A stretch of 64,000 bases of DNA from a virus: IMG/VR virus record IMGVR_UViG_3300029698_000133, positions 8,559-72,558 of that record; one strand, given 5' to 3'. Each line of letters opens with the position of its first letter. The first letter of the stretch is position 1. Position numbers and translations under genes: made by a program. Below are positions 1,273-48,958 of the stretch, piece after piece. The notes beneath the pieces were generated by a model that searched no databases, was not told where the DNA came from, and saw only the letters and a list, made by a program, of their open reading frames with translations.

Positions 1273-1461
1273 TAAAACTAAAGTAAAAGGCCTATTGCTG
1301 ACCTATGTGAGTATTCCGCGCGAGATTGCGCACCTCAACCGCTCAAATTGAGCATCCATTCCGGCGGGATTGAGCACCCTTGCCGCTGTCGTTGAGCACT
1401 GCGGTAAAATGTAGATATGCGTCAGATTTCTGGCGTAAATATCTACAAGGAGGTCACCTGT

Positions 1462-3000
1462 ATGACCAATTACCGTGAGATCCTCAGGCTCCATAGCCTG
1501 GGACTCAACAAGACCGAGATCGCGTCAAGCTGCCGCTGCGCTCGGAACACTGTGGCAGCAACCCTGCAACGGGCGGCGAACTGCGGCCTGCAATGGCCGC
1601 TGCCGGAGGAAATGTCGGATAAGCAGCTCTCAGAGCGGCTGTTTCCGTCCAGCACCTCAAAGCCTGTCTACAAGATGCCGGACTACGACTATGTCCACAA
1701 GGAACTCCAGCGCAGCGGTGTTACGCTGAACCTGCTGTGGCTGGAATACTGCGACCAGTGCCGGGCGGCGGGCGAGATTCCATACCAATCAACCCAGTTC
1801 AACAAGTACTATGCCGACTATCTGGCAAAGGCCAACGCCACCATGCACCTGAACCACAAACCCGGTGAGGTTATGCAGGTGGACTGGGCCGGCGATACTG
1901 CCGCTGTTATTGACACAGACACCGGTGAAATTATCCCGGCCTATGTGTTCGTGGCAACCTTGCCGTACAGCGGCTACAGCTATGTAGAAGCCTTTTTCTC
2001 CATGAATCAGGAGTCATGGACCACTGCCCATGTGAATGCCTACAAATACTTCGGCGGTGTCACCCGGATCATCCAGTGCGACAACCTGAAAACCGGCGTG
2101 CAAAAGCATGGGAAGGATGAGGTCGTTCTCAACAAATCGTACCAGGAGCTGGCAGAGCATTACGGCACGGCAATTCTGCCTGCCAGAGTCCGCGCACCCA
2201 AGGATAAAGCTGCTGTTGAGGGTACCGTCGGTATCATCTCTACCTTCATACTGGCCGCTCTGCGGAACCGCCAGTTTTTGTCTCTATTGGAACTGAACGA
2301 GGCGATTTGGGACCGTCTGGAGATGTTCAACCACAAACCTTTCCAGAAAAGGGAGGGTAGCCGGGCCAGCAGCTTTGCGGAAGAAAGGCCCTTTCTGCGC
2401 CCTTTGCCGCCCAGACCTTTTGAATTGGCCACCTGGAAAGTGGCAACGGTGGGACCAAATTACCACATTTCTGTGGAGCGTATGAATTATTCTGTTCCCT
2501 TTGAATACATCAAGCAGAAGGTAGATGTCCGGCTCACCAAAGCCACGGTAGAGGTTTTCTACGGTGGAAACCGAATCTGTTCCCATCCCAGGCTGTACGG
2601 ACGGTTTAACCAGTACAGTACGATCCAGGAGCATATGCCGCCAGAGCACCAGAAGTATGTCCAGTGGAATGGTGAACGGTTCATTCACTGGGCCGGTAAA
2701 GTCGGCAGCAACACGCAGGTCGCTGTCCAAGCCATTCTCAGCGGCTACAAAGTAGAGCAGCAGGGCTACAAGTCTTGCATGGGTCTGCTGAAGCTGGCAG
2801 ACAAATACACCCCGGAACGGCTGGAGAATGCCTGCAAACGGGCATTGGAATACACCCCCCGCCCTTCTCTCAAGAATATCCAGGCTATTCTGGCATCTGG
2901 CCAGGATAAAGCCATCCCTGAGCAGAGTGCGGCTACTGCGTCCTCATCCCGGTACGGATTCACCCGTGGAGCTGCGTATTACGGAAGGGGGAACAAGTGA
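1462..3000 (+). CDS. istA: IS21-family transposase IstA
   Basis: N-terminal HTH (LGLNKTEIASS), DDE catalytic region, size about 510 aa; RBS AAGGAGG precedes the ATG at 1462. Confidence 0.85.
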   Translation: MTNYREILRLHSLGLNKTEIASSCRCARNTVAATLQRAANCGLQWPLPEEMSDKQLSERLFPSSTSKPVYKMPDYDYVHKELQRSGVTLNLLWLEYCDQCRAAGEIPYQSTQFNKYYADYLAKANATMHLNHKPGEVMQVDWAGDTAAVIDTDTGEIIPAYVFVATLPYSGYSYVEAFFSMNQESWTTAHVNAYKYFGGVTRIIQCDNLKTGVQKHGKDEVVLNKSYQELAEHYGTAILPARVRAPKDKAAVEGTVGIISTFILAALRNRQFLSLLELNEAIWDRLEMFNHKPFQKREGSRASSFAEERPFLRPLPPRPFELATWKVATVGPNYHISVERMNYSVPFEYIKQKVDVRLTKATVEVFYGGNRICSHPRLYGRFNQYSTIQEHMPPEHQKYVQWNGERFIHWAGKVGSNTQVAVQAILSGYKVEQQGYKSCMGLLKLADKYTPERLENACKRALEYTPRPSLKNIQAILASGQDKAIPEQSAATASSSRYGFTRGAAYYGRGNK

Positions 3001-3746
3001 TGCTGACTGAAACAACGGTATCCAAGCTGCGTGAAATGCGGCTGAGCGTTATGGCCAACGCGCTGAAGGACCAACTTGCCGATCCGCAGTTCCAAAGCAT
3101 GGCCTTTGAGGACCGGCTCGGTCTTTTGGTGGATGCGGAATGGAATGCCCGAAAGAATAACCATCTGAACAAGCTGATCCGGCAGGCAACCTTCTCTGAT
3201 CCGGGAGCTTGTCTGGAGAATGTGGAGTATCTGCCCGACAGAGGTCTGAAACAGGAGGAACTGCTGCGGTTCGGCACCTGCAACTACATCCAGGAGCACC
3301 ACAACATCATCCTGTTGGGTGCCACCGGCAGCGGCAAAACCTATCTCGCCTGCGCTCTGGGCATGGCTGCCGCAAGGCGGTTTTATGCGGTGAAGTACAT
3401 CCGGCTCCCGGATCTGCTGGTAGAGTTCCAAATTGCCAGGGGTAACGGCACCATCCGCAAGCTCATGGCCCAGTACAGGAAGTATGCCCTGCTCATTATT
3501 GACGAATGGCTTCTGTACCCTTTGAAAGAAACGGAAGCCAGGGACTTATTGGAAATCGTGGAGTCCCGGTACAAGCGAAACTCCACGATCTTCTGTTCCC
3601 AGTTTGACATTCCGGGCTGGCCGGAAAAGCTGTCTGACCCACTGCTGGCTGATGCCATCTGCGACCGAATCGTCCACGACGCCTACACCATAGTCATTGG
3701 CGGCAAGGAATCCATGCGCAAGCGGAAGGGGCTGCAAGACATCTGA
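2997..3746 (+). CDS. istB: IS21-family helper ATPase IstB
   Basis: Walker A GATGSGKT, Walker B LLIIDEW; ATGA overlap with istA. Confidence 0.85.
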   Translation: MMLTETTVSKLREMRLSVMANALKDQLADPQFQSMAFEDRLGLLVDAEWNARKNNHLNKLIRQATFSDPGACLENVEYLPDRGLKQEELLRFGTCNYIQEHHNIILLGATGSGKTYLACALGMAAARRFYAVKYIRLPDLLVEFQIARGNGTIRKLMAQYRKYALLIIDEWLLYPLKETEARDLLEIVESRYKRNSTIFCSQFDIPGWPEKLSDPLLADAICDRIVHDAYTIVIGGKESMRKRKGLQDI

Positions 3747-3892
3747 CTCCGACCGTATTTATGATACCTTGACACCTTTGTGCTGTCCATATTCAACCTG
3801 AGCGGTGGGACTGCTCAATCCGGGCGGTCCCATTGCTCAATTCAAGCGGAACCGCTGCTCAATTTCGCCGGTCGAGCTGATTTTGCAGAGCG

Positions 3893-4037
3893 GTGTACGC
3901 ACCTGAAGGACGTGCAGGAGTGGCTGGGACACTCGGACATCAAGATGACCGCGAACATCTACGGCCATCTGGACATACGCCGCAAGCGCTCCATCGCCAA
4001 CGGCTTGGAGCAAGCGTTGCCGCGATTGAAGCCGTAA
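3893..4037 (+). pseudogene. tyrosine recombinase/integrase C-terminal remnant (box II) truncated by the IS21 element
   Basis: THLKDVQEWLGHSDIKMTANIYGHL matches the conserved HxxR...LGH...Y C-terminus of phage integrases; only about 45 aa remain; lies immediately beside the tRNA. Confidence 0.6.
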
Positions 4038-4098
4038 AAACAAAAAAGCGCCAAATCCTTTCGGATTTGACGCTCCTGCTGACCTTGACAGCCATCTT

Positions 4099-4175
4099 TG
4101 GTCCGAGTGGCGAGAGTCGAACTCACGGCCTCTTGAACCCCATTCAAGCGCGCTACCAAACTGCGCTACACCCGG
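4099..4175 (-). tRNA. tRNA-Pro (anticodon GGG)
   Basis: Manual fold: acceptor CCGGGTG/CACTCGG (one G-U), D stem GCGC/GCGC, anticodon stem CTTGA/TCAAG with loop ATGGGGT (GGG, G37), T stem GTGAG/CTCGC with TTCGACT loop, encoded CCA. Confidence 0.8.
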
Positions 4176-4304
4176 TCAACCGGGCTGTCTCGAATCAGCT
4201 TGATTATTATAACTGACTGCACCGAGAATGTCAATAGAAATGTACGAATTTTATAAATATATTTTGCTTTATGACTGATAAAGGAAGGAAAGAAGGGATA
4301 AATC

Positions 4305-4556
4305 ATGCCGAATAGCCTGGAATTGAACGTCTCCCCTGCGCTGTTGCACACCTTTGCCAACCATCCGTTCCATGTTCGCAAGGATATGGAGATGAATGAG
4401 CTGGTGGACAGCATCCGGGAAAGCGGTGTTATTGTTCCGCTGATCGTGCGCACGAGGCCCGAGGGCGGCTATGAGATTATCAGCGGACACCGCAGGTGTG
4501 AGGCCTGCCGGGAGTTTCGTCATAAATCAAGAAATGTGATTATCACACGCAAATAA
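4305..4556 (+). pseudogene. ParB/Srx-like N-terminal domain, truncated (83 aa)
   Basis: VPLIVR...GGYEIISGHRR ParB box; good RBS, but the ORF stops right after the box; full ParB proteins are more than 250 aa. Confidence 0.5.
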
Positions 4557-4707: not shown

Positions 4708-4968
4708 TCACCCAAAGCCAAGTGCTTTTGCCTTCTCATACACCTGTGCTCGGAACCGATTATTGCCGATTCCCACCACCAGCAATCCATACTCCTTCCG
4801 CAGCTCCGGCAGATTAGCAAGACCACCAACCACCGGAATGCCGCAGATGTCAGTGCCCACAGGTTGCCCATCGTCTACAAAGGCACAGTCATATTCTATC
4901 ATCGCTTGTTCAGCAACCATACGACCGAAGCCGCCGGCACCGACCAGCAGGAGCTTCTCCTTAGACAT
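4708..4968 (-). pseudogene. NeuD/PglD-family sugar acetyltransferase, N-terminal fragment (86 aa)
   Basis: LLLVGAGGFGRMVAE Rossmann-like N-terminus typical of NeuD/PglD; the hexapeptide C-terminal domain is missing. Confidence 0.4.
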
Positions 4969-5387
4969 TAGGAATACCCTTCGGAAACGCCCTCAGTGCT
5001 TTCAGGCATAAACAGGATTCAACGCTGGTCGCAGAGCAAGCAACCATATTTAGTGTACGTTTATTTCTTCTTGTCAATATATAGTATTTTTCCACGAGGA
5101 CAGGGGTGTCATCAGGAATAAACATCCGTTTAGACACGAGGCAGACTTCTGCCCCTCTCCCCGGCTCCGTCAATTCAGGCACGAGGAAATAGGTGCAGTC
5201 AGGCATAAACACCCTTTCAGACACGAGGCAATCTTCCCAGAAAACACAAAAAGCAGCCCACCGGGTAGCCTTTCCTTCCTGCTGATCTCTCAGCTCGTTG
5301 GAAAGCAACCTGGTGGGCTGCTACATTTTTTATTCAGTTTTCTCTGCGACTGCGGAGCCTAACCGTTTCTTCTCCAGACTCTCACAG

Positions 5388-5822
5388 TCAAATATTCTCT
5401 GTCCCAGAAGTCGTCTGTGCCTGCTCCTGCGTGCTTTCGTTCCCCTTGTCCACCTTCCCCTCGAAGATGGGAATGGCATGGCACAGGTCGTAATTCACGA
5501 GCCTCTGCTGCGGATACTCGACACCCGGCAGCCGGTAGGATCTTGTTCTGTCCCAGCCACAGCTCTGATAGATCAGGCGCACAAAATTCTTGCTTTTGAT
5601 CTCATATCGGTCATCCTGATTTTTCTTCGGAACACGATTGGCCCCCTCTGCGTCCATTCCACACGCTTGTATTGCAAACATCTGCTTGGTCGGATTGTAG
5701 AGGAAGTGATAGAATTCCGGGCGGCCAATAGATTCAAGGGCGCTCCGGAAGACCGTGATGCGACCGTCTGCATATCGAAATGTAATCCCCAGCATATTCT
5801 GCTGCCATGTCTTTGCTGGCAT
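5388..5822 (-). CDS. hypothetical protein; paralog of the C-terminal domain of the 653-aa serine recombinase
   Basis: Shares the conserved block ITF..AC......V......W......CG.....RY..G with ORF 5881-6618 and with residues about 390-520 of the recombinase 6497-8458. Confidence 0.45.
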   Translation of the reverse strand: MPAKTWQQNMLGITFRYADGRITVFRSALESIGRPEFYHFLYNPTKQMFAIQACGMDAEGANRVPKKNQDDRYEIKSKNFVRLIYQSCGWDRTRSYRLPGVEYPQQRLVNYDLCHAIPIFEGKVDKGNESTQEQAQTTSGTENI

Positions 5823-5880
5823 AATTTTTCCTCCTTCCTGAAAAAGGGTAGACTCCCCCCTTGGTGCTCAAATTCAATTT

Positions 5881-6618
5881 TTATAGATTTTGCTGTTGTC
5901 CGGGCATACCCGTAAGCATTCCAACCGAGACAAAACCATCCATTTGCCTCAGCTCAGACTCTTGGCGATGCTGCTCAACAGGCATGCCAAATGTACCCGC
6001 GATGTCATCTGGGTAGTAACCCTTCCGAGGATTCACAGGCTGTTCTTCCGTATTCTCTTCGGCCACTGTCGTAGGTTGTTGATCAGCAGACTGCTTCTTT
6101 TTACACTCGTGGAACACCTCGGCCGCCACAAGGTCAAACACATAGAGAGCTTCGCCCTCGAACTCGATGCGGTATCCGAGGATCTTATACCGGCAGTCAC
6201 CGGACCAATCCATTTCCTTATAAAGCAATTCTGAAAATAACCTGCAGGACATTTTCCGACTCTTACGCTTGTCCGGTTTTGCGATACACCAGCGCAGAGC
6301 ATCCCTGTCATTTTCATTACAGCCTTTAACTACAAGCCGCTTTAAGTCGCTGTTAAACATGATGTTGACGTACACCACATCCTCCAAACCTGCAATGCAG
6401 GCCGTGTTGAATGTGATGCTGTCTTTCCTTATTATAATGGCGGGATCTCGAAGATGTGCAAAAAGTTCCCTCCGGGCGACCTGATAGCCATCATAATCAA
6501 AGGTCTGCTCGATCTCCGTTCTCCTCTGTTCCTGCTCCGACATCTGCTCCGCACTCAGTTCCAACACCTGCGGATTCTCCATCTCCATTGTCTGCTGATT
6601 CGCCAGCTCCATGTTCAT
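5881..6618 (-). CDS. hypothetical protein; second stand-alone copy of the recombinase C-terminal domain
   Basis: Clear alignment with the recombinase C-terminal region (SITFNTACIAG... vs LSFNTACLKK..., MDWSGDCRYK vs MDWDQDLKYR); its 5' end overlaps the recombinase 3' end by about 120 nt. Confidence 0.5.
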   Translation of the reverse strand: MNMELANQQTMEMENPQVLELSAEQMSEQEQRRTEIEQTFDYDGYQVARRELFAHLRDPAIIIRKDSITFNTACIAGLEDVVYVNIMFNSDLKRLVVKGCNENDRDALRWCIAKPDKRKSRKMSCRLFSELLYKEMDWSGDCRYKILGYRIEFEGEALYVFDLVAAEVFHECKKKQSADQQPTTVAEENTEEQPVNPRKGYYPDDIAGTFGMPVEQHRQESELRQMDGFVSVGMLTGMPGQQQNL

Positions 6619-8458
6619 CTGGTATAGGCCACCCTTCTATTATTTTCTCTGCTTCATGTAAAAGTTCTTCAAGGTCTTCTGAGGTCAATGTACTGTATTC
6701 GGCCAGTTCCTTTGCCGGCCGCAAAACATCCCAGTCAGCCGCATAGTGCCTCTGCTCCAGTAGATTAATCTCTCCGATGCTGGTAATCGGTCTTCCAAAT
6801 GTGTCCTCCCATTCCGGAGGCAAAATGTTAATAATCTGCTTAACTGTCCTCCCTGCGATTTCAGCTCGGTCATCTGTTTCAGCTTCTTTAGGCGGAAGAA
6901 CGATGTTCTCCGTCTTTACCATTTCAGGTTCGTCCAGTTGAAACAGCATAACCTTTTGGTCATCATTCTCGATAAAGTCACCACGGAAACGGTATTTCAG
7001 GTCCTGATCCCAATCCATAATGTCAAACAGCGTTTTCGCCAGTCCACGGCACGACTTGGACAGCGCACACCACCGCCCTTCGCGCAGCTTTCCCCAGTGA
7101 ATTGCATTTGGATTGTTCCCATCACACGGTCGAACAGCAATACACCTGTTCACTGAATTCAACAGCAGCTCTACATACTCCACATTCTCAAATTTTTTGA
7201 GGCAGGCCGTATTAAAGCTCAGTTTTCCATCTGCTATTGTCATCGCAGGGTTTTGCGTAGTAGAGAAATACTGAGACCGAACCACCTCATAGCCACGCAT
7301 GTCTAATCCTGCTTTATATTCAATCTGCCGCGTGTCCTCCAACTCGCTCATAACACTTTCAGATGCCTTTTGATATTCATCCGTTGAGAATCCGGTCCAG
7401 TCTTTATCCAGTGGTACATATCCTCGAAGGATTCCATTGTCAACAACGCTTAGTACAGGCAAGGGCCTAGCTTTCTTCGCATAGGCACGTGATGCCCGAA
7501 GAAAATTTGCTGCTTCATATACAGTTCGAGAAACTATGGCTTCATGATGATTTTTTCTTCTAAACTGCGTTCTTTCACCATTGTTCTTTTTGGCTTTGTG
7601 TGTCAAAAAATTAGGGGTAAATGTCTTCCACGCCCTAATGTCACCACAATGACGTTCATTTGCAACAATCTCGGCCAGTGTGCTTGCGCTCCACTCATAA
7701 CTTCCCTGCTTTGTCTTGCGTTTATAGGCTTTAAGCAATTCTGCAATATCAGAAAATGAAACACCATTCAAGTAAAGATAGTAGATTGCTTTTACAGTTT
7801 CAGCTTCGTCCTCATTGACGATAAGGTCACCATCTTCGTCCCGGTCATAGCCAAGCAGCTCTGGTGTTAAAAACAGTCCCTTCCTAAACCGGCGTTCAAT
7901 CGACCAGTTCATAATGACCGATTTTGAATGGGATTCTTCTTCAGCAACCGAGGCCAAAATCGTCAAGATCATTCGTCCATTATTGTCAAGCGTATAAATG
8001 TTGTCTGCTTCAAACTGAACACCTACAGGCGGTTCAAGGTTTTTCAGAAGGTCAATAACAGAAAGGCAATCAACGATGTTTCTTGCAAATCGAGCAATCG
8101 ACTTGGTCATGATCAAATCTATTTTCCCGGCTTTGCAATCCTCAATCATCTGGAGCATGCCTTTTCGGTGTGCAATAGATGTTCCGCTTATACCTTCATC
8201 TGCATAGATTCCAACAAGTTCCCATCTAGGATGTCCTGTAATGTACTCAGTATAATAATTCTTTTGAAGTTCATAAGAAGATGTCTGTTCGTCATTATCC
8301 GTTGAGACCCGAACATAGGCCGCCACACGGCGAATTCCACCGCTCTCCATAAAATCCGCAGTAGGCTTTGCAGGGATTATTTCGATTTCAGACGCATCCG
8401 TGCCTTTATATTTATCACGGATTTTCTGCTTACGGTCTTGTCCACTGTTTTCTTTCAC
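6497..8458 (-). CDS. large serine recombinase (653 aa) with an unusual C-terminal domain; no Cys-rich zinc ribbon recognised
   Basis: Resolvase catalytic N-terminus (RVAAYVRVST, Ser nucleophile) and recombinase domain; C-terminal 250 aa unlike canonical zinc-ribbon/coiled-coil; acidic low-complexity tail. Confidence 0.8.
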   Translation of the reverse strand: MKENSGQDRKQKIRDKYKGTDASEIEIIPAKPTADFMESGGIRRVAAYVRVSTDNDEQTSSYELQKNYYTEYITGHPRWELVGIYADEGISGTSIAHRKGMLQMIEDCKAGKIDLIMTKSIARFARNIVDCLSVIDLLKNLEPPVGVQFEADNIYTLDNNGRMILTILASVAEEESHSKSVIMNWSIERRFRKGLFLTPELLGYDRDEDGDLIVNEDEAETVKAIYYLYLNGVSFSDIAELLKAYKRKTKQGSYEWSASTLAEIVANERHCGDIRAWKTFTPNFLTHKAKKNNGERTQFRRKNHHEAIVSRTVYEAANFLRASRAYAKKARPLPVLSVVDNGILRGYVPLDKDWTGFSTDEYQKASESVMSELEDTRQIEYKAGLDMRGYEVVRSQYFSTTQNPAMTIADGKLSFNTACLKKFENVEYVELLLNSVNRCIAVRPCDGNNPNAIHWGKLREGRWCALSKSCRGLAKTLFDIMDWDQDLKYRFRGDFIENDDQKVMLFQLDEPEMVKTENIVLPPKEAETDDRAEIAGRTVKQIINILPPEWEDTFGRPITSIGEINLLEQRHYAADWDVLRPAKELAEYSTLTSEDLEELLHEAEKIIEGWPIPDEHGAGESADNGDGESAGVGTECGADVGAGTEENGDRADL

Positions 8459-8467
8459 GGTTTCACC

Positions 8468-9439
8468 TTATTCCCTGAGCGTCCAGTACCACTGGCGCAT
8501 TTTTCTATAGCTTTGTATTCCCAGCACATGTTTTGTCTCAGCTATGGTTCTGCGACTTATTCCAGCTTCTCCAAGCCTTTCATAGATTTCTTTTGATGCC
8601 ATATCACCTTTTACAAGATACTGCTTCAAAAGAGCGCAAGCCATTTCCGTTTTTGTCTTATACTCCAAAGTCTGCACTTCTTGTTTTTCATCGCAGCTTT
8701 CAGATATGGAATCCAGCCATTGGAACCCGTAATCCTCTGTTATCGAGAAACTGATTTTAGACCCATCTGGTCCTAAGCTGTTTTTTATCTGGTGAACGAC
8801 ACGGATATCCATGTTTTCTGCATCGCGCTCAATCTGCAACACACTTCTTGCAGCCGCCACCACGTCAATGCTTCCAAGGCTTCTATACAAGCCTTTTATG
8901 CCTTCCTTTTTGTTCAAGTGCCCTATCAGCACAATGGCGCAATCATAGGTAGCCGCCCACATTCCAAGGTGCTGCATCAGCCGCCTTGCTTTTCCAGCAA
9001 TCTGCAAATCGGAGTCACTGGAGAGGTATGCTTGAATTGGGTCAATCACAACAAGCCTCGGTCGAAACGCAACGATTGCATCCCTAATGCGTTCATCATC
9101 GAGTGTCAGCCCACTGTTGACTTCTTCATTGATAAATGCCACTTTGCTGCAGTCTGCGCCCTGTTCTTCCAGACGGGGTTTTATCGTATCCGCAACCCCG
9201 TCTTCTGAGCATTGGTAGATAACCCTCTGTGGTTGCTCCAATGGTTTTCCGTCAGGAAAGGCACCTCCTGTGGTTATTTCAGCAATCAGATTCATCATCA
9301 TTGTAGACTTGCCATCACCGGGGTCTCCCTGTAGCAAGGTTATTTTTCCAATTGCAATATATGGATACCAGAGCCAGCGGACTGGCGATGATTCGACCTC
9401 ACTATACAGCGTCAAAAGTCCTTCTTGCACTCGTCCCAA
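8468..9439 (-). CDS. RecA-like AAA_25-type ATPase with C-terminal HTH (mobile-element RepA-like)
   Basis: Walker A GDPGDGKST, RecA-like core; C-terminal HTH region; 10 nt from the recombinase gene, so likely one operon. Confidence 0.6.
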   Translation of the reverse strand: MGRVQEGLLTLYSEVESSPVRWLWYPYIAIGKITLLQGDPGDGKSTMMMNLIAEITTGGAFPDGKPLEQPQRVIYQCSEDGVADTIKPRLEEQGADCSKVAFINEEVNSGLTLDDERIRDAIVAFRPRLVVIDPIQAYLSSDSDLQIAGKARRLMQHLGMWAATYDCAIVLIGHLNKKEGIKGLYRSLGSIDVVAAARSVLQIERDAENMDIRVVHQIKNSLGPDGSKISFSITEDYGFQWLDSISESCDEKQEVQTLEYKTKTEMACALLKQYLVKGDMASKEIYERLGEAGISRRTIAETKHVLGIQSYRKMRQWYWTLRE

Positions 9440-9513
9440 TCCCCCGTTCCCGCATTGTATAACCCTTAGAGTTCTTCAGTTTTATTATACATCTGCACTG
9501 GCGAGTTGACTGT

Positions 9514-9557
9514 CAAGCAGTAGACGACACGTTTTTCTAAATGTCAACTACTGCTTG
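9514..9557. promoter_or_regulatory. perfect 11-bp inverted repeat TCAAGCAGTAG/CTACTGCTTGA (22-nt spacer) in the divergent control region
   Basis: Seen directly; lies between the divergent XRE gene and the ATPase-recombinase operon; overlaps a TTGACA -35-like hexamer. Confidence 0.5.
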
Positions 9558-9579
9558 ACATTTGATAGAAAATATTCTC

Positions 9580-9619
9580 TAAGGATGCAACACCGTAAGG
9601 GGAGGAAGGTTGCATCCTT
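9580..9619. promoter_or_regulatory. perfect 11-bp inverted repeat AAGGATGCAAC/GTTGCATCCTT (18-nt loop)
   Basis: Seen directly; candidate operator or hairpin in the same divergent region. Confidence 0.45.
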
Positions 9620-9697
9620 ACCGCATTAATTTGCTATGTGTTTTGTTCGGCGCAATAATTGTCTTGTTCTTATGCGGGCCAGTTTGGAGGTAAAGCC

Positions 9698-10039
9698 ATG
9701 CCTATAGACTACCCTGCGCTCGGAAAACGTATAGCGTTTTTTCGGAACCAGTCTCACCTCACGCAAGAAGACTTTGCATACGAGGTTCATCTTTCCCGTC
9801 AATACATCAGTCAGCTCGAAACCGCTGCCTGCCGACCAAGTCTTGAAACAATCGTAGAGATTGCAAACACTCTCGGCGTTTCTACAGATGACTTGCTTGT
9901 CGATAGTCTGACCCACTCCGTTTCCACAGCAGACACCGAAGTTCATCGGCTTCTGATTGACTGCAACGAACTCGAAGCTGAAATTCTCACTCGTACCTTG
10001 AAAGAATTACGCGCCATCCTTTACAGCCTCGGCGTATAA
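9698..10039 (+). CDS. XRE-family HTH transcriptional regulator
   Basis: LTQEDFAYEVHLSRQYISQLE helix-turn-helix; RBS GGAGGTAAAGCC precedes the ATG at 9698. Confidence 0.8.
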   Translation: MPIDYPALGKRIAFFRNQSHLTQEDFAYEVHLSRQYISQLETAACRPSLETIVEIANTLGVSTDDLLVDSLTHSVSTADTEVHRLLIDCNELEAEILTRTLKELRAILYSLGV

Positions 10040-10125: not shown

Positions 10126-10494
10126 CTACCTTTTAGTTGAAGTCCAGCAATCGTACAGGAAATCTAACAGCCCTGTGGCTACTGTTTGAACTGTAACCGA
10201 TCCGTTCACCGACTTAAGCTGGGCCTCCATTGTCTGCCATAATTCTGGCGCAAGCTCAGTTTTCTGGCCTACTGCTCCCAGAGCGTATTCTACCGAATCG
10301 TTCACCAAACCAGACAGGGTTCTCCCATCGACCGTCACTGCCCCTCTCTCCAAGCTTATCACTGCATCCATTTTCTTTTTCGCGTCGGACCATGGCAAAT
10401 TCATCAAGTAAACTTTGATTGCTGCGGCAACTACCACTTCTGGCCCAGTCAATCCATAGGATTCAATATGTACCTGTTCAAGTTCATGCTTCAT
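10126..10494 (-). CDS. hypothetical protein
   Basis: ORF with strong RBS (GGGAGGAAC) before MKHELEQ; no recognisable domain. Confidence 0.45.
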   Translation of the reverse strand: MKHELEQVHIESYGLTGPEVVVAAAIKVYLMNLPWSDAKKKMDAVISLERGAVTVDGRTLSGLVNDSVEYALGAVGQKTELAPELWQTMEAQLKSVNGSVTVQTVATGLLDFLYDCWTSTKR

Positions 10495-10565
10495 ACAAGT
10501 TCCTCCCAATCGTGTGTCTCTGGCACCCAGCATAAAGCAAAACTCTATACATAGCAATCCCATCC

Positions 10566-10640
10566 AAAACAAAAAGGCCCACCGGGTCACCATCTTCTTT
10601 TGCTTATTCGCAAAGCCAGAAAGTGACCCGGTGGGCTGTA
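10566..10640 (-). terminator. 14-bp inverted repeat GCCCACCGGGTCAC/GTGACCCGGTGGGC followed by CTTTTT (minus-strand sense), downstream of the recombinase operon
   Basis: Seen directly; large 33-nt loop, so strength is uncertain. Confidence 0.4.
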
Positions 10641-11855
10641 TCAGTTTTTCTCAACTTCAATATGGTCTGGATATACCAGTACCTTCGATACTTCCTTTTC
10701 AAACCGTTCCTGATCCATGTTCAGCCACTCAAGTTCTCGCAGGATTGCATCGATAAGTTCTTCTTCCTTAATAAAGCGGTTGCCGCATCGCTCATTGCCT
10801 TTTCCTTTTTGCCGGTTTCGGCAGTTCCACGCTTTATAGGTGCTTTGCGTCTTGAAACCGCCAGCAGCTTTCAAAGTCCGGCGCAAAAAGGGAGCACCAC
10901 ATTCTCCACAGAATACTTTGCCGTAGAGGAAGTGATGCTCCCTGTTCGTTTTATGAATACCGACCTTTGCCAGTTCTTTTCGTTTTTCCAGAATTTCCTG
11001 TGCCTTATCCCATGTCTCCCGATCTATGATTGCTTCATGGTCATCCCACAGATAATTGGATTCCACCTTCTGATTCGGATTGGGCTTCTTGGTCAGGTAG
11101 TCCAACGGAGCTTTCTTCTGCAACCGCTTGTCACCCACATAGGTTTCATTTGAAACCATGTACCGGAGAGTTTCTACTCCAAACCCCTTTTTACTGTGCA
11201 ACGATTGAGCCCCCAGCTCTTCCAAACCTTTAGCGATTTGCCTATAGCTCTCGCCTTCGATGAATCTGCGGAATACTTCCTTTACAATCCAAGCGTCCTT
11301 GTTGGGAACCAGCTCGCCATCCACACAGTCGTAGCCGAGAATACGATTATTGCCGAGATTGTACTCACCTCGTGCAAATCGGCTTGCATAAGCAGCCTTT
11401 TCATTTTCACTGATAGAATGACTTTCATCCTGTGCCACTGCTGCCAAGATGGATAGGACGAAATCACAGGTTGGATCATCTGTGCGGATATTTTGTTCCT
11501 CAAAAATGATTGTAACCCCCAGCGTTCTAAACCATTTGGCATACTGCTGGCAATCCACCATGTTCCGAGAAAACCGGGAAATACTCTTGCAAATGATAAT
11601 ATCCAGCTTCTTGGCTTCGGCGGCCGCCGCCATTTCCTGAAAGCCCGGTCGATTTTTCACTCGTGTAGCAGAATGCCGGTCAGCATATACCTTAACCAGT
11701 TCCCAGTCGGGATGACTTTGGATCAGCTCCTCGTAATACTTCTGCTGAGTTTCAAAGCTTTCATCCTGCTCGTTGCGAAAAGTGCTGACACGGCAATACG
11801 CGGCCACACGTTTCTTTGCCACTGGGATTTTTGGCATTACCTTTTTAATAATCAT
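10641..11855 (-). CDS. large serine recombinase (404 aa), third of a tandem trio
   Basis: KRVAAYCRVST catalytic motif, recombinase domain, CxxC...C zinc-ribbon region. Confidence 0.85.
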   Translation of the reverse strand: MIIKKVMPKIPVAKKRVAAYCRVSTFRNEQDESFETQQKYYEELIQSHPDWELVKVYADRHSATRVKNRPGFQEMAAAAEAKKLDIIICKSISRFSRNMVDCQQYAKWFRTLGVTIIFEEQNIRTDDPTCDFVLSILAAVAQDESHSISENEKAAYASRFARGEYNLGNNRILGYDCVDGELVPNKDAWIVKEVFRRFIEGESYRQIAKGLEELGAQSLHSKKGFGVETLRYMVSNETYVGDKRLQKKAPLDYLTKKPNPNQKVESNYLWDDHEAIIDRETWDKAQEILEKRKELAKVGIHKTNREHHFLYGKVFCGECGAPFLRRTLKAAGGFKTQSTYKAWNCRNRQKGKGNERCGNRFIKEEELIDAILRELEWLNMDQERFEKEVSKVLVYPDHIEVEKN

Positions 11856-13356
11856 TTGCTGCTACTCCATTCTCCTTGGCACGGAGGTTCTTTGCCGTCT
11901 GCATGGCAGCATTACGCTGTGCCTCCCGCGTATTCACTGACTTCTTATCAGCCCGCACCACGCTCACCGGCTTGTTCTCGCTCCGCTGCGCACGGTCCAG
12001 CGAGTTCCGATAAAGCTCTGCCACATGGGTCGGTTCCTCAACCTTGGATGCATTCAAAGCAACCTCGCTCTCCAGACCACATTTCCAGAGCACCCGCATG
12101 GTGTCCTGTTTAAATTCAATGTGCCCCACCAAGTCATCCAGCCAGTAATACTGGACGGTGTCCAGTTTCGGGCTCTCTGCCTTGATTTCCAGCATCCTCT
12201 GCATAGCTACCGTCCGCTTCTTTTCCTTGATTTCAAGGGTGTTGTAGGCTTCCAGCAGGGCAGCATCCACAAGATACCCTTTGACCGCATACCCACGGCA
12301 GCCGTCCACATCAAAGCAGCCAAGGATGCGCTTGTGGCTGTTTACTTTCATGACCCTCGGAATCATCTTCTTCCCACACAGCGGGCAGACAATGTTTGTA
12401 TCGAAGTAGGGATACCGGCTGTACTCCCCATGCGGAGATTTCAGTTCCATAATGCGCTGTACCTGCTGGTAGGTATGGCGGTCGATAATAGGAACATGGT
12501 GGTTCCTGACGTTGTAGACCGGAATCACAGTCGAGTCGTTCCGGACACTCCTATGGGAAATATGGTCAACACTGACCCATTTCTGAAGCCGCATATCACC
12601 AATGTACTTCTCGTTCTCAAGGAGATACTTAAGGGCGGTCTTGTTCCACGTCTGCTTGCCCCTTGCGGAAGGAGCCTGTATAAAGGTCAGCTCATCCAGA
12701 ATGTCCGTCATGGGGATGCCGTACTGGTACATTTTGAAAATCATCCGCACAATGGCAGCTTCGTCCGGTTCAATGACAATTTCACCGTCCTTGGTCTTCC
12801 GATAGCCATAGGTCTTGGTCCAGCGCGACTCACCACTTTCAAACCGCTTGCGAATGCCCCATTTCAGGTTTTCGGAGATGGAACGGCTTTCCTCCTGTGC
12901 AAAAGCCGCCATGACCGTCAGAATCAGTTCGGACACCGACGTTGCCGTATCCAGTCCTTCCTTTTCAAAGTAAAGCTGGACACCGATGCTCTGAAGATGG
13001 CGCACATAGGACAGACATTCGACCGTGTTGCGGGCAAATCGAGAGATACTTTTTGCCATGATATAATCGACCTTGCCTGCCTCGCAATCCTCCATCATCC
13101 GCAAGAACTCTTTACGCTTTTTCACGCTGGTTCCGCTGATGCCCTCATCGGCGTAGACATCCACCAACATCCAGCCAGGGTGCTGGGCAATCTTAGCGCG
13201 GAAGGCTTTCATCTGCTCCTCCAAGCTGTGGAGCTGAATCTCCTGGTCCGTGCTGACACGGGCATAGACTGCAACGCGGACTGTTTTCAAGGTGCTAAGT
13301 GCCTGAAAGCCAAGCTTCTGTACCCCAGTGTCTACCTTTTCTACTGTAATTTCCAT
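11845..13356 (-). CDS. large serine recombinase (503 aa), second of the trio
   Basis: VRVAVYARVST, YADEGISGTS, recombinase domain and CPLCG zinc ribbon; RBS AAGGAG. Confidence 0.85.
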   Translation of the reverse strand: MEITVEKVDTGVQKLGFQALSTLKTVRVAVYARVSTDQEIQLHSLEEQMKAFRAKIAQHPGWMLVDVYADEGISGTSVKKRKEFLRMMEDCEAGKVDYIMAKSISRFARNTVECLSYVRHLQSIGVQLYFEKEGLDTATSVSELILTVMAAFAQEESRSISENLKWGIRKRFESGESRWTKTYGYRKTKDGEIVIEPDEAAIVRMIFKMYQYGIPMTDILDELTFIQAPSARGKQTWNKTALKYLLENEKYIGDMRLQKWVSVDHISHRSVRNDSTVIPVYNVRNHHVPIIDRHTYQQVQRIMELKSPHGEYSRYPYFDTNIVCPLCGKKMIPRVMKVNSHKRILGCFDVDGCRGYAVKGYLVDAALLEAYNTLEIKEKKRTVAMQRMLEIKAESPKLDTVQYYWLDDLVGHIEFKQDTMRVLWKCGLESEVALNASKVEEPTHVAELYRNSLDRAQRSENKPVSVVRADKKSVNTREAQRNAAMQTAKNLRAKENGVAANDY

Positions 13357-13368
13357 GTACTTTTCTCC

Positions 13369-14310
13369 TTATTGCCATTTGGGGTCGTTCAGGACCTTCT
13401 GCTGTTCATCATTGTATTTTTTTCGTCCGGAGTGGAGCAAGCCCATCTGAATCATGGTCTGCACACGCTCGAACTGTTCTCTGCTGACAATGCCTTCATG
13501 ATGGTCCTCCAGATGAACTTGGGCGCGTTCTCCCCTGTTCCGCTTGCTGTATCGGTGGCCGTTCTTGCCGTAGGCCGTGTAGTAGCAATCCGTCCAGTAA
13601 TCCCCCATGTATGCGACATTTTTCAGCATATTGGGTAGTCGATTTCGATTCTGAGACCATGACACACCGGTATTTTCCTCATCCTCCATCTTATCCAAGC
13701 AAGCTCGGATATCTGCGTAGCAGACTCCTTTTGCCGCTTGGTCAAAGGCATAGCGGACACGGCGGGCCTCGGATTCTTCAATTCTCCATTCACCCTGCTT
13801 GTTGACCCTGCGAAAGCCGTAGGTCACACGGCCGGTCGGAATGCCCTGGTCATGGAGATAGGCGATGCCTGCTCGAACATTCTCACCGATGCTCTTGGAC
13901 TCCTCCTCGGCAATGATGGCAAGGATGTGGAAGAACAGCTCGCTCTGGCCATCCATCGTGTTAATGCCCTCTTTTTCAAAAATGACCGGGATGCCCAGCT
14001 CTTTCAGCTGACGCACCACGGTCACACAGTCAAGCATATTTCGGGAGAAACGGGAGATGGACTTGGTATAGATGATGTCGATTTTGCCATCCATGCAATC
14101 TTGAATCATCTGTCGGAATTCCGGCCGACCCTGCGTACTGCGTCCGCTGCCTTCATCCGCATAGACCTTTACGAGTTCCTCATCGGGGTTATTGGAGAGC
14201 AGCTCTGTGAAGTAGCTTTTCTGAATCTCATAGGAACCTTCCTGACACTCCATGCCGGTGCTGACTCTGCAATAGGCCGCCGCCCTTTTCTGTTTCACTA
14301 CAATTTCCAT
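13369..14310 (-). CDS. serine recombinase (about 313 aa), first of the trio; zinc ribbon not recognisable
   Basis: KRAAAYCRVST catalytic N-terminus plus recombinase domain; start set at MEIVVKQ after RBS AAGGAGG. Confidence 0.8.
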   Translation of the reverse strand: MEIVVKQKRAAAYCRVSTGMECQEGSYEIQKSYFTELLSNNPDEELVKVYADEGSGRSTQGRPEFRQMIQDCMDGKIDIIYTKSISRFSRNMLDCVTVVRQLKELGIPVIFEKEGINTMDGQSELFFHILAIIAEEESKSIGENVRAGIAYLHDQGIPTGRVTYGFRRVNKQGEWRIEESEARRVRYAFDQAAKGVCYADIRACLDKMEDEENTGVSWSQNRNRLPNMLKNVAYMGDYWTDCYYTAYGKNGHRYSKRNRGERAQVHLEDHHEGIVSREQFERVQTMIQMGLLHSGRKKYNDEQQKVLNDPKWQ

Positions 14311-14551
14311 TGCGTCATCCTCCTTGGGGTAGTCGTATAATGCCGCATGTATGGCTGAATAGCAAGTTCTGTCGCCCAGATAAATCGGCATATTACCGAC
14401 AAACTATCTGCCTGACAGAACGCCTGAATTGCAGCATATATGACAAATGTAAAGGGCTTCCCGGTCAAATTGGGAAGCCCAGAGTGCGACGTTTGAATCA
14501 GCCCGGTCTATGTGCCAGAGAGTGCTTTTGTGTCATCGCAACGAGGTGATA

Positions 14552-16024
14552 TTAGACCTTTTTGACGTAATCGAGGCTGATCCAGCCGTTACGCTTGCTG
14601 GCATAGGATTTCAGCAAGCCCCACTTGGATGCGCCCTTGCCTGTTGCCTCCGAAACAATGGTGAACACACCCTTGCCAGTAAAACCACGGGAACCGTAGT
14701 TCGTGCCGGGGCCCTTGCGGATGTGCAGGTCAGAGATGGACACCCGGACCGTGTAGGGCTGAAACACCGTGCTGGTGGGATAGACGACCTTGCCGTTCTC
14801 ATCGAACACAGAATAGCCAGGGTTCTTGTCCGCACACGCTTTTGCGTTACCGAGGTCACGGAACGCACCCTTCTGGGATGCGGCATCCGGCCAATTCTTG
14901 CGCACACGGTACAAGGCCGTAGTGGGCGTAGTGGCTACCGCCGCATCGTACTGGGTCAGGTTCCACTGCTCAATGATCCGGCAAAGGTTCTGTACATAGT
15001 CAAGGCTCGTCGCGTAACCGCCGTCCTTGATGATCTGCACGGCTTTCTTGTAGTCAGTGCAGCCTGCCAGTCCTTCGTACCGCTTTTGGCTGCCGTTCAT
15101 AGCTCCCAGCAGGTAAGCGGAATGGTCGTTGATAGAGTCCTCAATGGAACTGTACTTTCGGAAGTCTGCCGTAATGCTTACATAGCTGCCGTCCGTGTTC
15201 TGCTCCCCGGTTTTCATCGAATACACGGAATGCCCATCCCAGGCAAAACCCGACCAGGTGTTCCCGGAAAGTGATGCCTTCATGCCAAAACAGTTATTGG
15301 CATCCTGTGCCAGCTCGGACTTGCCGTAGCCAGATTCCAGAATGAACTGCGCCATGGACACGCTGGCAAGGATACCGGACTGCCGCTGGTTAGCCATGAA
15401 CATCGATGCCACCTTTGCCACGACAGCCGCTGGCTCCATGTCCTTCAAAGAGGTTGCCTGCAAACCAGTGGACACAGCCGGAGTGCCGAGTGCCGCCGTC
15501 ACCTTAGCAGCCAGATCACCGAGGCGGCTGTACAGCCAGTCGCCGGGGCAGGCTTTGTTCGCATACCAGCGGTGGACGGTCAGAACCATCTCATCAGCCG
15601 CAGGAGCGTAATTGAGAGTTTTATTCTTGTCCCCCAGCCAGAGCAGTTTTGCCTTACCATTCCGCTTGCAGATGTCGGTGCAAAGCTCGATCAGCGAAGT
15701 GTATACTGCACTGTTCATCGCATAAGGGTGGGTCAGGTCGCTGGCGCACTCGATAGTGATAGCCCGCTGGTCGTTTGCTGCACTGGAAGAGCACCAGCTC
15801 CGGTTCTTCTCCTCGACACAAAGCGACACACGACCGTCCTTGCCGATGCCGTAGTTACAGCTTGCCTGCCGGGAGGTACTGGTGAAGCAGCCACAGATAC
15901 TTTCCGCAGACAACTGCCCCACCACACAGTGCGGGGTGATGCGGTCGATGCTGTGTGTCCGCAAGCCGGAATGGTTCGGGCTGAGGTTCGTATAATCCAC
16001 TAAGGGACTGTTAGTGTATGCCAT
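14552..16024 (-). CDS. phage endolysin: N-acetylmuramoyl-L-alanine amidase plus glucosaminidase plus C-terminal cell-wall-binding repeat
   Basis: Amidase_2/PGRP-like N-terminus, central FILESGYGKSELAQDANNCFGMKA glucosaminidase motif, C-terminal YRVRKNW...NAKACADKNPGYSVFDENGKVVYP domain; RBS GGAGGAA before MAYTN. Confidence 0.85.
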   Translation of the reverse strand: MAYTNSPLVDYTNLSPNHSGLRTHSIDRITPHCVVGQLSAESICGCFTSTSRQASCNYGIGKDGRVSLCVEEKNRSWCSSSAANDQRAITIECASDLTHPYAMNSAVYTSLIELCTDICKRNGKAKLLWLGDKNKTLNYAPAADEMVLTVHRWYANKACPGDWLYSRLGDLAAKVTAALGTPAVSTGLQATSLKDMEPAAVVAKVASMFMANQRQSGILASVSMAQFILESGYGKSELAQDANNCFGMKASLSGNTWSGFAWDGHSVYSMKTGEQNTDGSYVSITADFRKYSSIEDSINDHSAYLLGAMNGSQKRYEGLAGCTDYKKAVQIIKDGGYATSLDYVQNLCRIIEQWNLTQYDAAVATTPTTALYRVRKNWPDAASQKGAFRDLGNAKACADKNPGYSVFDENGKVVYPTSTVFQPYTVRVSISDLHIRKGPGTNYGSRGFTGKGVFTIVSEATGKGASKWGLLKSYASKRNGWISLDYVKKV

Positions 16025-16091
16025 AGAAGATTCCTCCAATAGAAAAAAGCCCGGATTTCTCCGGGCCAGATAGTGTAGATTCGATTCTTGG

Positions 16092-16775
16092 TCAGGGCAG
16101 CAGCAGCTTCATACCAATTAGGATGCAGTTGGACGTCAGCCCGTTCAGAGCCCGGATCTCGGTATAGTGGACACCGCTGCCGAGCTTGCGCTCCGAGATA
16201 CGCCAGAGGTTATCGCCGGGAGCTACGGTGTAGACCTCCCTGCCCACAAAGGCGTAAGCGTCCTCGGCATTCAGGACATACGCCACGCCGTCCTCTGCCT
16301 CCGGGCACTTGATCTTCAGCCAGTCCCCACAGTGTTCCAGAACATCCACAATGCAGTTCTTGGCATACACGGCAACCACTTCTGCATCCAGACTCGGTGC
16401 CTTGCGGATGTTCATAAGAGTTTTCAGCTTGCCATAAGCAATGGCATCCGGCAAAGGTTCTGCAGACGGAAACTCCTCAGCCGGGGTGCCCTCCGAAGGC
16501 TGCTCACCTTCCACTGCGGAGTCCTCCTCCGAGGTATTCTCCTCCGGGAAATCCGTTACAGGCTTCTCCTCAGCGTTCTCCTCCCGAGTCGTGGGCTCAT
16601 CCGCCGGGTAGATCACGGTGCCGTCCTCGGCAAAAACATAGCTGCCGGGATTCTCGTCACACTTTGCCTTTGCATTCGCCAGCAGCTTATATGCACCGAG
16701 CTGGGATGCGTCATCGTTCCAATCGGTCCGAACACGATAATAGCCGGTGTTCAGCTTTGCAGGATATTCACTCAT
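16092..16775 (-). CDS. cell-wall-binding protein without a catalytic domain (endolysin CWB-type domain, SH3b-like, LysM)
   Basis: N-terminal YYRVRTDW...NAKAKCDENPGSYVFAEDGTVIYP is paralogous to the endolysin C-terminus; C-terminal YTVAPGDNLWRISERKLG...IRALNGL is LysM-like. Confidence 0.6.
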   Translation of the reverse strand: MSEYPAKLNTGYYRVRTDWNDDASQLGAYKLLANAKAKCDENPGSYVFAEDGTVIYPADEPTTREENAEEKPVTDFPEENTSEEDSAVEGEQPSEGTPAEEFPSAEPLPDAIAYGKLKTLMNIRKAPSLDAEVVAVYAKNCIVDVLEHCGDWLKIKCPEAEDGVAYVLNAEDAYAFVGREVYTVAPGDNLWRISERKLGSGVHYTEIRALNGLTSNCILIGMKLLLP

Positions 16776-16974
16776 AGTCGTTCCTCCATCAAAATTGAGG
16801 GAGAGGTCGCCCTCTCCCAATAGACTCCTTCATAAAGCGCACGATTTTTTGGCTTTTGGGAGGTACTTTTCAGAAAACTTCTCTCATTATGCTTACTGAA
16901 ATTCGGCATTTGGTACCCAGTTCTCCAAATTTTCCTCTCATAAAGCACAATGAAAATGGCGAGAAGTTGTATCG

Positions 16975-17406
16975 TTACACTTCGTTCTCGTCGTTCTTGT
17001 CCGGGATATGCTTCTCGTTGGTCAGCTGGATCAGCATATCTTTCAGCTTCTCCGGGATGGGAATGCCGATCACGGCGGAGTTTTCCAGAATGGACAGGCC
17101 CTCATTGGACAGGTAGAAGAAGACCACAGCGGTACGGATTGCTGCGCCGTTCTGAAGGACCTGCGTGTCGATGATGTTGGCAATCCCAACCAGCAGGAAG
17201 ATGCACACCTTCTTGGCAATGCCCTTGAAGCCCACCTCGCTGGACAGTTCCTTGCGGATACCCGCCGCAAGGATACCGGTGAAGTAGTCGGTCACCACAA
17301 AGACGATGAGCGCGTAGAGGAAGCCATCAAAGCCTCCGAAGAACCAGCCGAGAAAACCACCCAGTGCCGCAAAAGCAAACTGGAGCTTGTCGATTACATT
17401 CTGCAT
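16975..17406 (-). CDS. phage holin (TcdE/phage_holin_4-like)
   Basis: 143 aa with several TM segments and charged C-terminus; sits just upstream of the lysin genes. Confidence 0.7.
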   Translation of the reverse strand: MQNVIDKLQFAFAALGGFLGWFFGGFDGFLYALIVFVVTDYFTGILAAGIRKELSSEVGFKGIAKKVCIFLLVGIANIIDTQVLQNGAAIRTAVVFFYLSNEGLSILENSAVIGIPIPEKLKDMLIQLTNEKHIPDKNDENEV

Positions 17407-48084: not shown

Positions 48085-48185
48085 TTCGGTATGTGCATAT
48101 TACCGTCGTTTCGGCATAATAGCAAGGCCATAAAACGTCATATTATCGACGATCATCAGCCCATATCTTTGGTGGATCTATGTCG
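48085..48185 (-). promoter_or_regulatory. repeat cassette copy 6 (TTGCTA-17-TAATAT)
   Basis: Homologous. Confidence 0.6.
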
Positions 48186-48825: not shown

Positions 48826-48859
48826 GGTGTTTATCTCCTTTTGTCTTGTTCTGTTCCCC

Positions 48860-48958
48860 TTGCGGTATGTGCATATTACCGTCATGTGGGCAGGATATCA
48901 AGGCCATAAAGGGTCAAATAATCACCGATCATTCAGAGCAAAGATCGTGTACATTATG
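48860..48958 (-). promoter_or_regulatory. repeat cassette copy 7 (TTGATA-17-TAATAT; leader GGGGAACAG)
   Basis: Homologous. Confidence 0.6.

Follow-up and report, generated by a model that had tools for sequence, protein, structure and literature searches.

A 64,000-nucleotide (nt) stretch of a viral genome (IMG/VR record IMGVR_UViG_3300029698_000133, positions 8,559 to 72,558; here referred to as "the window") carries, behind its lysis genes, three tandem large serine recombinase (LSR) genes, designated LSR1, LSR2, and LSR3 and, together, the trio. Our interpretation, to which we assign a probability of roughly 0.55, is that the trio is an old serine-integrase module that acts as a heteromer at a conserved motif (J) marking the prophage-host junction and that the interval between LSR3 and J is a variable cargo slot. 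By analogy with published systems, the trio is a phage-borne and chromosomal Clostridia case of the serine-integrase triplets known from integrative and conjugative elements (ICEs) of Firmicutes. The carrier is a large temperate tailed phage of >69 kb that runs past the right end of the window, and its host group is the gut Clostridia.

LSR1 (13369-14310), LSR2 (11845-13356), and LSR3 (10641-11855) are uninterrupted, co-directional minus-strand open reading frames (ORFs) without frameshift or internal stop. An initial annotation of the window had described three tightly packed genes of 313, 503, and 404 amino acids (aa) directly downstream of the endolysin, and we find them so: the trio begins 241 nt past the endolysin, a 12-nt gap separates LSR1 from LSR2, and LSR2 and LSR3 overlap by 11 nt. 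The LSR1 frame extends to 340 aa (13369-14391); the supported start, giving 313 aa, is at 14310, where a ribosome-binding site (AAGGAGG) lies 8 nt upstream, and the relative L013 does not preserve the frame of the 27 codons upstream of this start (L-numbers denote comparison loci or contigs). Members of the LSR1 family are uniformly ~310 to 320 aa long. All three proteins match the Pfam Resolvase and Recombinase families (E values of 1e-12 to 1e-36), with the catalytic domain (PF00239) at 2e-33, 6e-36, and 4e-32 across the trio and the recombinase domain (PF07508), which follows the alpha-E helix, at 2.5e-12 to 2.4e-21. They also match serine-integrase structures in the PDB, with which they have the catalytic domain, the alpha-E helix, and the recombinase domain in common. 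The R-x-A-x-Y-x-R-V-S-T motif, which the initial annotation had read in all three together with the recombinase domain, is present in each, and the RVST serine and the SRF(S/A)RN arginines are invariant in each of the three family alignments. Residues R9, S17, R87, and R90 are invariant across the LSR1 family, which comprises >3,000 proteins of stable length, and S35, C324, C327, C347, and C353 are invariant among 24 LSR2 homologues. The catalytic Ser and Arg are retained throughout the trio.

The proteins differ in what accompanies these shared parts. The AlphaFold2 (AF2) model of LSR1 (predicted local distance difference test score [pLDDT], 84.8) stops past the recombinase domain, with neither zinc ribbon nor coiled-coil, and no Pfam zinc-ribbon match was obtained, in agreement with the earlier remark that the first protein lacks this domain. 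LSR2 is likewise without a Pfam zinc-ribbon match but has four invariant Cys residues and a predicted beta-ribbon in its AF2 model, consistent with a divergent zinc ribbon. In that model, strands 321-359 are followed by helices 360-373 and 383-394 and then by strands 410-433, so that two helices of 14 and 12 residues (a ~35-aa stub) occupy the usual place of the coiled-coil. Zn_ribbon_recom (PF13408) is matched by LSR3 only (E value of 5e-12); there, by structure match and ortholog alignment, a helix leads straight to the terminal strands with no insert, and the region matching the C-terminal domain of A118 integrase ends 23 aa short of the LSR3 terminus. No canonical long coiled-coil was found in LSR1, LSR2, or LSR3 in the AF2 models, structure match, or ortholog alignment. 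In single LSRs, the coiled-coil, which spans ~70 aa in phiC31/A118-type integrases, mediates synapsis and direction control.

When short LSR1 homologues were followed into their contigs, the next genes were always of LSR2 type and then of LSR3 type, and this order is kept in at least 10 independent lineages (best matches run in the order LSR1/LSR2/LSR3 in L045/46, L047/48, L049/50/176, L052, L054, L055, L177, L178/179, and L180-L183). A neighbor-joining (NJ) distance tree of 60 sequences has three position-specific clades with matching internal branching (the window with L180, then L045, L047, L049, and others); LSR4, a fourth serine recombinase of the window, and the common LSR pairs fall outside them. 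The four LSRs of the window share only 33 to 38% mutual identity. Because gene order is fixed and the position-specific clades match, the trio is a co-evolving unit, and these sequence comparisons indicate that LSR1-LSR2-LSR3 is an old, co-inherited ordered unit. A profile scan of genome contigs with the LSR1 alignment was too generic and returned mostly ordinary LSR pairs, as at the Streptococcus locus L119, where only a pair is present, yielding three extra trios and background. A DNA search of deposited phages and plasmids with a 4.6-kb region gave only short, weak matches to LSR cores.

The contexts of the trio are diverse. It follows a lysin gene in phages (the window, L013, L142, L047, L054, and L181), follows a relaxase gene in L052, and lies at an island edge in L177. 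In L179, it occupies one end of a satellite-like element that carries capsid and DUF927 primase genes; no other recombinase was seen in this element (L178/L179), two 99.8%-identical copies of which join different host DNA 445 nt past LSR3. Lone trios occur between host genes in ≤3.9 kb (L045/L183, L049/L176, L182, and L180), and the trio adjoins a junction in L179, L045, L182, and L183. The divergence of L046 from L045, considered as evidence on the right end of the trio, was set aside, as an insertion sequence (IS) in L046 explains it. Junction flanks and stand-alone trios are repeatedly found beside polysaccharide-locus genes. Flanking genes include a NeuD-like fragment (window 4708-4968), a CapD-like epimerase (L047 19541-20143), and VanZ-Bac_transf and glycosyltransferase genes (flanks of L045, L182, L178/179, and L180); in L178, the element provides a new start to a truncated Bac_transf gene.

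The initial annotation placed the trio at the prophage end. This placement did not hold: about 12 IMG/VR contigs, 93 to 98% identical, are collinear with the window down to ~4978-4996, i.e., 5.66 kb past LSR3, and a fourth LSR precedes the junction. The 5.66-kb interval holds seven ORFs (orf155, a helix-turn-helix [HTH] regulator, an AAA_25 ATPase, LSR4, orf245, orf144, and orf115), six of them co-directional and the HTH gene divergent. LSR4 (6497-8458, minus strand) encodes 653 aa and belongs to another clade than the trio by Pfam, tblastn, and tree. The J region (4978-5236, minus strand) contains three direct copies of TGTTTATGCCTGA(A/C)(A/T)GCAC, at 5211-5193, 5124-5106, and 5014-4996, and the conserved J motif TGTTTATGCCTGAAAGCACCGAGGG at 4996-5014 is the prophage-host junction. 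The join falls just past J copy 1, at ...GTTTCCGA|AGG (~4980-4984), where the homology of relatives stops and flanks vary by contig. Because the sequence past …TTTCCGA differs among the window, L007, L008, L010, L142, and L047, we take …TTTCCGA as the phage-host recombination point and conclude that several targets are used; the crossover itself would lie near CCGA. In L047, the J P-arm is identical to that of the window although the proteins are only 50 to 58% identical. The J repeats are ~57 nt each, and one frame through them reads as a repeated peptide, …F(M/I)P(D/E)xT….

J accompanies the trio where LSR4 is missing. L180, which lacks LSR4, has an exact 18-mer match; L182 and L183, also without LSR4, each match 15/16 of the core, together with the sequence that continues the motif, 60 to 100 nt past the LSR3 terminator (we estimate the chance expectation for such 15/16 matches at ~4e-4 per locus); L045 has a diverged copy; and in L181, J lies 4.4 kb past LSR3, beyond intervening cargo unrelated to the LSR4 module. 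Conversely, J was absent from the LSR4 lineages without the trio that were examined (L144-149 and L150-152). Because J marks the junction and follows the trio in LSR4-free loci, the trio is probably the integrase at J and the LSR4 module cargo; that is, the trio, rather than LSR4, probably acts there.

Under this interpretation, J would be the cognate recombination site of the trio, 5.6 kb downstream in the window, and the slot between LSR3 and J would here hold a separate recombinase/replication module (HTH, AAA_25, LSR4, orf245, and orf144). Judged from their conserved residues, all three proteins would be catalytically competent. Their DNA-binding parts would comprise the recombinase domain only in LSR1, a zinc ribbon plus the ~35-aa stub in LSR2, and a zinc ribbon in LSR3. 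Because the members differ in DNA-binding equipment, a heteromeric synaptic tetramer suggests itself, in which different half-sites would be read by different subunits and subunit composition would replace the long coiled-coil as the control of synapsis and direction. The initial annotation had proposed either a heteromeric integrase or a directionality factor among the three; with three catalytic members, a heteromeric integrase fits better than one non-catalytic directionality factor, and a directionality role for one member is less likely given three intact catalytic centers.

The closest published precedents for this arrangement are serine-integrase triplets from the ends of streptococcal ICEs and IMEs (integrative and mobilizable elements) of the Tn5252/Tn1549 type (Ambroset et al. 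2016), the proteins of which cluster by position (external, middle, or internal) and for which "one or several CDSs" (coding sequences) are allowed between triplet and junction (PMC4701971). In S. suis, a single type of triplet has been found at three different target genes (PMC13089153); S. suis ICE triplets are further described in PMC5053989, and ICE/IME triplets also in PMC9585547. Like the window trio, the streptococcal triplets consist of three adjacent, co-oriented Resolvase-plus-Recombinase genes with position-specific clustering, some members lacking a Pfam zinc ribbon, and they use several targets and can have extra coding sequences before the junction. Unlike them, the window trio is carried by a tailed phage of gut Clostridia and has stand-alone copies, its junction lies 5.6 kb off with a fourth LSR between, and its site motif, J, can be named. 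The initial annotation had likened the genes to ccrAB; a multi-recombinase comparison was apt, but ccrAB is not the closest system. CcrA/CcrB of the staphylococcal cassette chromosome SCCmec and the overlapping LSR pair of Streptococcus phage Phi1207.3 (PMC4260502), which comes right after holin and lysin as in the window, share with the trio tandem, often overlapping LSR genes that are thought to cooperate in integration and excision. Unlike the trio, CcrAB and Phi1207.3 are pairs in which both members are full length (~450 to 560 aa), and LSR pair clades are separate from the LSR1, LSR2, and LSR3 clades in the NJ tree.

Single phage serine integrases work as homodimers and homotetramers, with a long coiled-coil and a separate directionality factor. 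Those of phiC31, Bxb1, A118/LI, and SPbeta (SprA) share the catalytic, alpha-E, and recombinase parts with the trio and have a zinc ribbon as in LSR3 and, putatively, LSR2, and their genes lie near the phage attachment site, as here; in contrast to them, no trio member has a long coiled-coil. The LSRs TnpX and TndX of Tn4451 and Tn5397 are single proteins of 530 to 707 aa that use several targets resembling the element joint, with a GA-like junction dinucleotide. Their likeness to the window concerns junction behavior only (…CCGA| here) and might pertain to LSR4 instead of the trio. Recombinase-in-trio (RIT) elements consist of three adjacent, unidirectional, overlapping tyrosine recombinase genes, are compact, and sometimes contain nothing else. 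The parallel with RIT elements is one of layout only, as the trio proteins are serine recombinases by Pfam and the RIT fold and chemistry differ.

Multiple recombinases had been regarded as unusual for a siphovirus, a view that the deposited records contradict. Phage records matching LSR1 number 148, with 328 LSR places, and many hold 2 to 4 LSR genes after the lysis genes; they include Streptococcus phages (pairs) and gut phages of 'Ca. Heliusvirales' (three or four LSR units). Multi-LSR arrays after lysis genes are thus common in Firmicutes phages; the paper defining the order 'Ca. Heliusvirales' does not discuss them. In one phage of this order (L131; PV036459.1), an annotated protein of 1,276 aa (10778-14608) consists of two complete LSR units in one frame and comes after two more LSR genes 3' of the endolysin.

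Several observations weigh against the trio as the integrase at J. Of the recombinase genes, LSR4 lies nearest to J, in the usual place of an integrase, and a 29-kb derivative (L021/L143) keeps LSR4 and J while LSR1, LSR2, and half of LSR3 are gone. J varies in a codon-like manner (by our reading, …ILF(M/L/F)PESTEGV…), so its conservation may partly reflect coding. The attachment site attL lies beyond the window, and the junction, read from one end only, is resolved to a few bases (…TTTCCGA|). Some contigs have a "complete J," which may be the attP of a circularly permuted ~76-kb genome or the attR at a primary host site. The latter alternative comes from L180 and from L182, L183, and L045, in which a similar sequence with both arms lies upstream of VanZ. 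A ~90-nt conserved stretch (…GCTGCTGAGGACGATTAGTAGAGCTTTATAAGGAATAAACGGCTC…) is found at 15048-15247 in L180, just upstream of a host glycosyltransferase operon, and at 16720-16812 in the phage contig L009, just past J. Because this stretch may be either an operon leader element or phage DNA, complete J forms can be read as attP or as attR. Kinship with the streptococcal triplets is argued from layout and position clustering as published, and we infer the heteromer from domain make-up. Finally, a sister two-LSR cassette (5,041 bp, AA core) at a homologous position is precisely present or absent in 99.9%-identical phages, so LSR cassettes can be self-contained insertions.

That last point leads to the foremost alternative, possible but clearly less probable, in which the trio is an autonomous ~3.9-kb passenger cassette (~14325 to ~10380) that moves only itself and has landed between a promoter of the phage and a small accessory gene, with LSR4, beside J, as the integrase of the phage. 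L150 and L151 are 99.9% identical over ~9.8 kb shared, and their sole difference is the precise cassette with its 2-bp AA core (L150 1080-6121 versus L151 6122), which comprises two LSR genes, a 341-aa ORF, and the N terminus of an orf155-like gene. It separates a promoter from the start codon of a 95-aa gene, making a natural occupied/empty pair with the sites attB CCCA-AA-AGCATT, attL CCCAAA|GAGAAG, and attR GAGAGT|AAAGCATT; the AA core was reconstructed for this sister cassette only. The left boundary of the trio (14324-14370, minus strand) is similar: a conserved promoter-like phage arm, ACTTGCTAT...GACTACCCC, is followed by AA (14325-14324) at a distance of 15 nt from the LSR1 ATG, and this left flank can be aligned with the left attB/attL arm of the empty and occupied sites in L151 and L150. 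Homology at the DNA level with L180, a stand-alone trio in a chromosome, sets in precisely at 14325, at the AA site, but because this start (AAGGAGG) coincides with the ribosome-binding site, it may merely mark the latter. On the right, orf155 is homologous to the fused L150 ORF spanning the junction, its N-terminal half resembling the cassette-borne part and its C-terminal half the phage-borne part in protein alignment, and the right junction of a trio cassette is predicted at ~10375-10385.

Lone trios between host genes (L045, L049, and L182) and L151, where LSR4 is the sole LSR seen near the lysis genes, also speak for such a passenger. Against it, J goes with the trio and not with LSR4 in five LSR4-free lineages and is missing from trio-free LSR4 lineages, and a scan for empty sites found the left arm in 16 viral contigs, 16/16 of them occupied. 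Moreover, because LSR3 is shortened or truncated in several stand-alone trios (L045, L183, and L177), these look like remnants and not active elements. The L049 and L176 trios are at the same locus with 91 to 93% nucleotide identity, and because they have diverged in step with the host genes, they indicate long residence rather than mobility.

In a further reading of similarly modest probability, the trio and J could form a self-sufficient mini-element of three serine recombinases and nothing else, a serine analog of the tyrosine-based RIT elements, that homes to polysaccharide-operon leaders and to a specific promoter-proximal phage site, with synapsis and direction controlled by the make-up of the heteromer in place of a coiled-coil, and that has been repeatedly co-opted by phages, satellites, and ICEs as an integration module.

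It is unlikely, in our assessment, that the phage has two independent integration systems, with the trio and LSR4 using different sites, so that the phage could choose among attachment sites, or with one integrating and the other excising or resolving. Both modules are intact and co-inherited down to 50 to 58% protein identity (L047 and L054), and J junctions have many different flanks. In addition, the boundary in the L002/L133 contig is at the third J repeat, not the first, and L180 has an intact J, yet its host-DNA boundary is the 5' end of the trio. These points would suit two systems, but no second type of phage-host junction was seen among the phage contigs, and the LSR4 module is separable, being found in tandem arrays (L145, L147, and L162), without the trio, and next to iterons.

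Decaying duplicates or pseudogenes without joint function, a reading that the lack of a zinc ribbon in LSR1 and of a coiled-coil in LSR3 (which in isolation could pass for truncations) might suggest, are highly improbable and were rejected on conservation: with paralogues only 33 to 38% identical, trees matching between positions, catalytic residues invariant in a large family of stable length, and reading frames intact, recent duplication with inactivating mutations is ruled out, nor was a pattern of one fragmented gene found.

The module that we take as cargo (window 5388-10039) begins with the Cro/CI-type HTH_3 regulator (9659-10039, plus strand; Pfam), which accompanies AAA_25 and LSR4 at many loci. 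The remaining genes are on the minus strand: the RepA/KaiC-like AAA_25 ATPase (8468-9439; Pfam E value of 5e-26), LSR4, and its two constant companions, orf144 (5388-5822) and orf245 (5881-6618), the latter being paralogous to the C-terminal domain of LSR4 (aa 351-558). In L150/L151, the module is followed by AAATAAGTGA…TCACTTA iterons, and overall it resembles a small replicative/integrative element carried along by the phage. Between it and the trio lies orf155 (10126-10593, minus strand), which probably starts at M34 (10494). In L021/L143 (IMGVR_UViG_3300029092_000252; 29.3 kb), window position ~61836 is fused to LSR3 codon ~220, and all of the structural genes are gone, as are LSR1 and LSR2; in the ~29-kb derivatives L032/L036, inversion has changed the orientation of the orf245-orf144-orf115-J block with respect to the early genes. 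Directly 3' of LSR3, on the minus strand, is a terminator-like hairpin (10577-10636; GCCCACCGGGTCAC stem and T-run), and a similar stem at 5252-5322 follows orf144. The two share the stem GCCCACCGGGT, which also trails orf144 of L150/L151 and, as a degenerate copy, the trio in L180. The possibility that the two GCCCACCGGGT hairpins are att sites flanking the LSR4 module was rejected as unsupported, as both resemble ordinary T-run terminators.

Upstream of the trio, the minus-strand lysis module comprises a holin (16975-17406; Pfam), a LysM/SH3 protein (16092-16820; Pfam), and the endolysin (14552-16039; Amidase_2 and Glucosaminidase by Pfam). Tail, head, terminase, methylase, S-adenosylmethionine (SAM) synthetase, and primase genes fill the rest of the window on the right side of the prophage. 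Among these genes are an amidoligase (48178-48885), three DNA methyltransferases (51216-55592) that include a C5 enzyme of 782 aa and an N6/N4 enzyme fused to ParB, the SAM synthetase (56903-57970), and a D5/NrS-1-type primase-polymerase (58443-60851). The window does not contain the whole prophage: the phage extends at least 10 to 17 kb past position 64000, and ~20 kb walked past the right end, through a mosaic early region, revealed neither a clean attL nor a lone P' arm. Left of ~4980 is the truncated NeuD-like gene, preceded by mobile-element debris (1417-4556) made up of IS21 IstA (1417-3000) and IstB (2997-3746), a tyrosine-integrase C-terminal remnant (3780-4037) beside a tRNA-Pro(GGG) gene (4099-4175), an inverted J-like 17-mer (4207-4223), and a ParB-like fragment (4305-4556).

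Serine-integrase triplets have been catalogued in streptococcal antibiotic-resistance ICEs, and our comparisons place the same kind of module widely in the phages and chromosomes of gut Clostridia. To our knowledge, there is no mechanistic study of such triplets, and why three proteins are needed is unexplained. The trio offers a series of domain arrangements (LSR1 lacking the zinc ribbon, LSR2 combining one with a stub, and LSR3 having one but no coiled-coil), and the locus supplies a candidate cognate site, J, along with natural junctions at several targets, so that the question of why three proteins are needed becomes testable. If the trio works without a coiled-coil, this would have implications for direction control in serine integrases and for genome engineering with these enzymes. 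The repeated landing beside polysaccharide operons may matter for phage-host surface interactions.

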